Shown here: positions 57,833 to 58,295 of the stretch, piece by piece
Layout of the letters: each line of letters opens with the position of its first letter
How positions within the stretch are numbered: the stretch's first letter is position 1
Assembly (NCBI GenBank): GCA_964016885.1
Contig: OZ024745.1
Coordinates: 68,448,001-68,512,000 of the forward strand
Direction: 5' to 3'
Source of the DNA: Eledone cirrhosa
Taxonomy: Eukaryota
Length of the DNA: 64,000 nt
The notes under the pieces: generated by a model
What the model was told of the DNA's origin: nothing
What the model saw: only the letters and a program-made list of their open reading frames with translations
Database searches by the model: none
Made by a program: the position numbers and the translations under genes

Positions 57833-58295
57833 TGAATAAAATTAGTCCTCCATCAGTGATCTTCCAACCTTTTTTAGTTATTGCTCGCACCAACCAGAGG
57901 TATAGCCAGTCACTCTCTCTTAGCTGGCCTCTTCCTCACACTTTCACTCACTCACTCACTCTCTGCTACTTCCCCTCTCTCACTTCCTCCCATTTGACCT
58001 GCGTGAAATCCTTTTCTCGCTCACATCCAACCCAGGTCGGATGGTCTTTATCCCTCGTCTATGATTTCACAGAACTTAAGTTCATAGATATCACGGACTT
58101 GTCTCTTCTCTTCCTCTCTTTCCGTTGCATTACCATCTATGTTTGTTTATATGTCTCGCTCGCTTCACCCTATTTTACGTGTCCCAATAACTTTCTTTAG
58201 TTATTGCTCGTACCAACCAGAGGTATATGATCTTTAAAGTGAAGAAATACCAATGAAGGTTGGAAGATCACTGATGAAGGACTAATTTTATTCAT
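57833..58295 (+). mobile_element. Family I element with rearranged 5' end and permuted hammerhead at 58208-58277
   Basis: Short inverted arm 57833-57871, fragment 57874-57904, then monomer body ending ttattcat-(AT)n. Confidence 0.85.

Follow-up and report, generated by a model that had tools for sequence, protein, structure and literature searches.

The locus described here lies in a 64,000-nucleotide stretch of the Eledone cirrhosa genome, referred to in the following as the window, and it raises the question of whether a junction inside a repeat records the self-cleavage of the repeat's RNA in the living animal. The first-pass annotation of the window had noted a repeat fragment that stops precisely after N17, the nucleotide preceding the predicted cut of a permuted hammerhead ribozyme, and that is joined to an internal part of its own monomer. 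It proposed that reverse transcriptase (RT) had jumped onto the 3' end of a cleaved RNA.

Both observations were borne out. We numbered the 392-nt downstream unit (57905-58296) as positions 1-392, which places the predicted N17 at position 323 (58227). Sequence comparison within the window showed a blunt fusion of the predicted N17, at monomer position 323 (57904), to position 1 (57905). The fragment at 57874-57904 (ttagtt...ggtata) is followed from 57905 by gccagtcactctctc, which corresponds by blastn within the window to the internal monomer stretch at 24440-24646. Native copies without the junction have ...ccccctct before position 1, so that no microhomology exists and the break between 57904 and 57905 is sharp; a TA microhomology was rejected on these grounds. 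A boundary of the tail of a Penelope-like element (PLE) was also considered for the junction and was rejected, since the tail is located after position 392. The insertion as a whole consists of (TA)n, an inverted 3' piece (57831-57871), the upstream unit (~291-323), a full unit (1-392) and (TA)n. An inverted 5' piece is given as typical of Penelope-like insertions in the accessible text of PMC8557442. The features are listed in Table 1.

Table 1. Coordinates, within the window, of the junction-bearing insertion, the predicted ribozyme motif of its downstream unit and further copies of the repeat.
Feature	Position	Strand	Remarks
(CT)n(TA)n microsatellite, 5' flank	57750-57833	.	likely insertion target
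Inverted copy of the element's 3' end (monomer ~352-392)	57831-57871	-	blastn
5'-truncated upstream unit (~291-323)	57872-57904	+	ends at predicted N17; T-run allele of founder-junction upstream units
Blunt junction of 323 to 1	57904-57905	+	inherited from one founder; common to ~55-60 exact-anchor copies
Downstream unit, monomer positions 1-392, then (TA)n	57905-58296	+	homologous to other window copies
5' splint	58181-58211	+	GUCC 58181-58184 pairs with 58279-58282; pair counts
Splint hairpin H	58185-58191 with 58200-58206	+	pair counts
Splint UCGY	58208-58211	+	pairs with 58239-58242; pair counts
P0 5' strand	58213-58218	+	within 58213-58233
Block S	stem III 5' strand 58222-58225; U16.1 58226; N17 58227; stem I 5' strand 58228-58233	+	
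Predicted cut	between 58227 and 58228	+	in block S
Block G	58243-58251	+	11.1-like base 58243; GAAA 58244-58247; stem III 3' strand 58248-58251
P0 3' strand	58258-58263	+	within 58258-58282
Block C	stem I 3' strand 58265-58270; CUGAUGA 58271-58277; extra base 58278; GGAC 58279-58282	+	
(TA)n microsatellite, 3' flank	58294-58333	.	
Further subfamily copy, same repeat	9090-9170	+	compensatory motif changes
Further subfamily copy, same repeat	13736-13847	-	compensatory motif changes
Further subfamily copy	24127-24952		compensatory motif changes
Further subfamily copy	26700-27390	-	compensatory motif changes
Further subfamily copy	12700-13480	-	compensatory motif changes

From its sequence, we read the element as a non-coding, Penelope-type, retrozyme-like tandem repeat. 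It occurs in head-to-tail tandems, with neighboring matches ~515-635 nt apart, and also as 5'-truncated monomers in (TA)n, and an inverted piece at the 5' side is frequent. Four further subfamilies are present in the window, where the last three copies in Table 1 have the non-coding, head-to-tail arrangement of retrozymes. The traits expected of a non-autonomous PLE were found as well, namely 5' truncation, partial tandems, an inverted 5' piece and microsatellite targets; the available part of PMC8557442 counts partial tandems, the inverted 5' piece and (TA)n targets among PLE traits. Copies terminate either at 392 or ~40 nt further on, before (TA)n, corresponding to an optional 3' tail of 30-40 nt, and a tail between two RT start sites is known in a PLE (PMC11167929, accessible part). 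PLE-protein matches were found at 18 of 209 loci, in mixed orientation, with no fixed link of the repeat to a PLE ORF among the 209. The element is likely mobilized by PLEs; a recent preprint (10.64898/2026.07.22.740005, accessible part) argues that the retrozymes of animals derive from PLEs and are non-autonomous. Three contig runs from one sample contained the family together with the native upstream sequence of position 1; contigs, by their nature, cannot show RNA ends.

The window also contains ORF remnants that we take to be derived from Penelope-like RT and GIY-YIG proteins, at 21663-23336 (-), 36853-38871 (+) and 51869-52384 (+), the last in the center of a 2.3-kb, 99% inverted repeat (50777-53121). 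An open frame at 59067-59516 (+) resembles the end of a non-LTR retrotransposon that carries the restriction-like endonuclease. No Pfam match was obtained for the four ORF remnants searched. Minimal PLE-type hammerhead cores in canonical order (CUGAnGA, short stem II, GAAA) are found at 40879-40904 (+), 8196-8202 (-), 23894 (-) and 23961 (+), the latter two inside an inverted repeat upstream of a PLE-like ORF.

The genome search covered 3.0 Gb in 1,796 contigs. The predicted motif lies towards the 3' end of the element; its pattern of GAAA followed by CUGAnGA gave 12,602 exact matches genome-wide, and the reversed control gave none. Read 5' to 3', the blocks come in the order S, G, C (cleavage site, GAAA, CUGAnGA), which is the non-circular order of type-SGC hammerheads. 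We aligned 35 copies picked to span the subfamilies, named seven helices by eye and counted pairs. Of 1,155 cells, 92.3% were paired, compared to 27-49% in slid controls, and 20 of the 33 pairs changed on both sides. Values as high were reached by 0 of 500 shuffles on four of five measures and by 148 of 500 on the measure of further pair types; these shuffle figures are not probabilities, as the 35 rows share ancestry and were themselves the source of the structure. Six helices covary across the 35 copies, including P0 and the splint helices, which are candidates for the helix that in a type-SGC hammerhead brings stems I and II together. An independent RNAalifold prediction contained hairpin H, P0 and stem III as well. 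Both stems that define the type-SGC fold are present with covariation: stem I is 95.7% paired, with five of six pairs changing on both sides, and stem III is 97.1% paired, with two of five. The type-SGC core (CUGAnGA, GAAA and UH) is present too, with GAAA and CUGAnGA partly forced by the selection pattern. Neither U16.1 nor N17 was selected for; the former is T in 34 of 35 copies and the latter A or C in all 35. The word CUGAYGA is also present in loci chosen without it.

No continuous stem II, pairing the strand after CUGAnGA with the strand before GAAA, was found in the 35 copies. Stem II is split: the GGAC following the core has its partner in a distant 5' GUCC, the strand before GAAA is paired to UCGC, and hairpin H sits between these two partners on the 5' splint. 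The one direct pair between the two strands, like 10.1-11.1, forms in 20 of 35 copies, versus 12.5 when shuffled, and is A-A in the window copy. Rfam gave no hammerhead match at the gathering score and only chance-level hits by E-value, and the motif pattern had no match in metagenome contigs. Where an animal retrozyme would carry a type I hammerhead in each unit, this repeat has the SGC order and no Rfam hit. Our classification places the motif outside the SGC class proper, as something predicted to work like such a hammerhead. Covariation gives good support to the permuted, hammerhead-like motif of the first-pass annotation. The canonical minimal PLE hammerhead at 40879 begins with CUGAUGA-A-GGAC paired with GUCC, as in the repeat's motif, a likeness that suggests where the motif may have originated. 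Separately, L277:1458-1556 contains an SGC-order motif that has diverged strongly and differs in its helix sequences; it may belong to a distant family.

The junction itself is repeated elsewhere in the genome. A search with the unit, in which 40 of 3,861 candidates were scored, returned many matches preceded by a fragment ending at 323. Genome-wide, the exact pattern of the anchor plus GGTATA plus a base other than T had 100 matches, versus 1,723 for intact copies. The next base was G in 62 of the 100, as counted by eye, and 21 of the first 30 inspected had a 323-to-1 join identical to that in the window; ~55-60 exact-anchor copies carry it genome-wide. Among 34 distinct junctions, position 291 is T in 30 of 31 upstream units and C in 26 of 31 downstream units (Fisher p ~1e-12), and position 269 is A in 21 of 28 upstream units and T in 30 of 31 downstream units (Fisher p ~1e-10). 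These fixed, unit-specific marks indicate that the copies descend from one founder (n = 1). Repeated jumps were rejected as the source of the recurrence, since one RNA pool would not yield fixed position-specific marks. At two loci (L023 and L030), the junction occurs twice, 836 and 840 nt apart, showing that the join travels inside a compound monomer. As the recurrence is by descent, it provides no independent support for cleavage, and the window junction is an inherited copy of one old event with no fresh jump at this locus.

Independent breaks were collected in a census using two position-neutral filters with a shared upstream anchor, which gave 112 matches (100 listed) and 43 matches. A total of 116 distinct rows were aligned; together with L190, they were condensed by manual sorting to 53 large events, which leaves out repeated loci, slips of 1-4 nt and L149, whose break lay outside the positions covered by the census. 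Intervals were checked by hand, the numbers are small and the classification was partly by eye. Among the matches listed, the modal break at positions 314-332 was 323, with a weight of 7.6 of 53, followed by 324 (5.0) and 320 (4.6). Blunt events at 323 made up 5 of 20 with the founder (p 0.003-0.007) and 4 of 19 without it (p 0.016-0.028), again among the matches listed; their left end is fixed and their right partners vary (~330, 337, 337 in different subfamilies, and 370). A clearer sign than this excess comes from the non-duplication insertions among the listed matches, 6 of 10 of which fall within 323 +/-1 (p 0.003) and 4 of 10 exactly at 323 (p 0.02). A matched insertion search at N17 found three non-duplication inserts and two single added A among 10 matches, two of the three inserts having already been counted in the census; the control bonds between 319 and 320 and between 325 and 326 yielded 0 of 6 and 0 of 6. 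Events were also found where N17 is C and the sequence reads GGTATC, without TATA: L129, one matched-search insertion, and L219 from another subfamily. Three additional N17 events selected by position (L031, L186 and L191) were kept out of the tests, and L168 was downgraded for imperfect microhomology. A further search, with a filter one base off register that returned mostly single substitutions, gave ~9 new junctions among the first 100 of 300 matches listed, none of them blunt at 323. The 3'-break census of subfamily E had only two rows; that of subfamily F, with 11 rows, had one insertion at N17, one replacement adjoining it and one compatible duplication join.

Junction and insertion events at N17 together amount to well under 1% of copies, and the independent evidence for cutting at N17 is modest. 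A genome-wide peak at ggtaTH, as expected in the first-pass annotation, would be inflated by the ~55-60 copies inherited from one founder; once the founder is taken out or scored a single time, a modest excess of blunt events is left among the matches listed. The proposed jump of RT onto a cleaved 3' end fits N17 being the most frequent break and does not apply to the window copy, which arrived by inheritance; such a jump is not separable from RNA ligation of the same end. In the RNA sense, the inserts seen at N17 are rich in A and also contain G or C (AG, CAC, AC, AAG, AAG and AAGG; loci L135, L143, L160, L179, L219 and G000:C3:374275372-374275403). They might reflect tailing of an RNA end rather than addition by RT.

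We consider the following account probable: the junction goes back to a single founder event within a non-coding tandem repeat, this repeat is likely mobilized by PLEs, and the join likely marks the cut site of an SGC-order hammerhead predicted in each unit. Judged from sequence, the few independent scars at N17 likely record self-cleavage in the living animal. Self-cleavage of tandem transcripts after N17 would release monomers. RT would be primed in (TA)n, would start at an internal 3' site, position 392 or ~40 nt further, and would have to cross the cut site, either on a ligated circle, as in the RtcB model (PMC7229834, accessible part), or by an end-to-end jump. The crossing would nearly always be exact; rarely, the N17 end would be fused to a partner that had been shortened, or would gain 1-6 bases at the join. 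The founder would be one such mis-join, of N17 to position 1, ~200 nt short, removing the unit's stem I 5' strand, so that the unit could no longer be cut; the join would then have been carried in an ~840-nt compound monomer and copied dozens of times. We lean slightly toward a larger proposal, in which a hammerhead that is permuted non-circularly and has a new architecture (SGC order, with a four-way junction in place of stem II) is active, is present in >12,000 copies and drives a retrozyme family, rare mis-joins at N17 fossilize the cut, and the cleaved RNA is the true in vivo template of Penelope-type retrotransposition. Evidence against the mechanism outlined above comes from an Anolis PLE: according to the available text of PMC11167929, its insertion in vitro did not need hammerhead cleavage, and none of the RNA-seq reads ended at the site.

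Another origin for the junction appears unlikely to us, namely a DNA-level deletion of ~200 bp within a tandem dimer that ended at N17 by chance and says nothing about a possibly real ribozyme. Such a deletion would accommodate that all of the ~55-60 copies trace to a single event, that the family commonly shows deletions of varied size and position, and that the excess of other blunt junctions reaches only p ~0.02-0.03. However, judging from the monomer length, a random blunt break would hit N17 only about once in 525, and coincidence would also have to account for four more blunt junctions and no fewer than six insertions at N17. We find it less likely still that GGTATA is a DNA hot spot resembling the (TA)n target, where nicks, TA microhomology or new insertions cause breaks without RNA cleavage. 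PLE endonucleases favor AT-rich DNA (PMC11167929, accessible part), and truncations do cluster at this sequence: 10 of ~25 loci truncated at the 3' side into (TA)n break at GGTATA(T), by eye, in the first 100 of 129 matches listed. For 5' starts, 17 were at 323/324 and 18 at 315/316 in 100 of 246 matches listed, with a filter biased by (TA)n phase. In a phase-neutral rerun, (TA)n joins dominated, ambiguous over 320-324, with (TA)n joined to TG as the largest class. The 5' starts of subfamily E showed only a mild excess (~6-8 of 24 at 323/324, by eye). The cluster of 5' truncations at N17 is confounded by TA microhomology and by a second hot spot. Against a DNA hot spot, insertion into an older copy predicts a second tail after 392 and was rejected, as a doubled tail was seen in 0 of 26 classifiable loci (no tail was found in eight more); events also occur at GGTATC sites, and the blunt deletions hold their left end fixed while the right end varies. 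Two further observations concern the same region. Five loci of one subfamily (L087, L106, L107, L134 and L136) stop at 326-327 and run straight into (TA)n, which makes this site another, minor 3' hot spot, and fold-back inversions centered on the TTTAAA palindrome at 329-334 occur at G000:C1:268766795, C1:302059289, C3:248640798 and C3:378323774.

The motif could also be a conserved fold without catalysis, derived from a PLE hammerhead and serving in protein binding or RT recognition, with RT pausing or switching template at a helix junction; of the three alternatives, we hold this to be the most improbable. It would sit well with the missing canonical stem II, with the 5'-start hot spot at the edge of helix P0 (315/316) and with the poor in vitro cleavage by metazoan PLE hammerheads described in the available part of PMC4209133. 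Yet the hammerhead core pattern is kept across divergent subfamilies while the helix sequences turn over: position 7 alternates between T and C, U16.1 is kept and N17 is never G.

If the motif cleaves, the range of non-circularly permuted ribozymes would grow beyond metatranscriptome contigs of anonymous origin to include a eukaryotic retroelement of high copy number, and retrozyme surveys may undercount, since type I hammerhead descriptors miss the fold. The finding bears on the part that hammerhead cleavage may play in Penelope-type transposition. Its significance lies mostly in the ribozyme and less in the single junction in the window. Counting independent scars at the cut base, with inherited junctions counted once, offers a cheap genomic test for such families.

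The closest known relatives of the predicted motif are the type-SGC hammerheads, validated in metatranscriptome RNAs with the HRIMA-1 motif (Eckert et al. 2023, PMC10085705; this and the papers below are cited from their accessible parts). The repeat shares with them the order of cleavage site, GAAA and CUGAnGA, the crossing of stems I and III, and the predicted cut after UH. Type-SGC hammerheads are described there from metatranscriptomes and from no known organism's genome, whereas the present motif occurs in >12,000 copies of an animal repeat; in the literature we searched, mostly open-access papers, SGC hammerheads came only from metatranscriptomes and metagenomes, with no eukaryotic case found. 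Their stem II is continuous (PMC10085705). In the repeat, its place is taken by two helices that are formed with a separate 5' strand and flank a hairpin, no more than one direct pair forms, and stem III lies inside the additional helix P0. Eight "half core" cases ("HHR_half_core") in PMC8557442 may be related motifs. Like the animal non-LTR retrozymes (Cervera and de la Pena 2020, PMC7229834; Li, Clavereau and Pollet 2026, 10.64898/2026.07.22.740005), the repeat consists of non-coding head-to-tail monomers with one hammerhead-like motif per unit, dispersed as monomers and dimers and with proposed mobilization by PLEs; described retrozymes carry type I hammerheads, whereas this repeat has the SGC order and monomers of ~515-635 nt. 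Partial tandems, the inverted 5' piece, (TA)n targets and the optional tail of ~40 nt are shared with PLEs (PMC4209133, PMC8557442, PMC11167929), as is the extra base between A9 and G10.1 with PLE minimal hammerheads (PMC4209133). Unlike PLEs, the repeat has neither an ORF nor a fixed link to one, and its ribozyme blocks are re-ordered. A precedent for a ribozyme cut site mirrored in genomic junctions is the HDV-like ribozyme of R2 (PMC3774820), which belongs to another class, acts at the element's 5' end and is reflected in most insertions, whereas the events at N17 mark well under 1% of the copies of this repeat.
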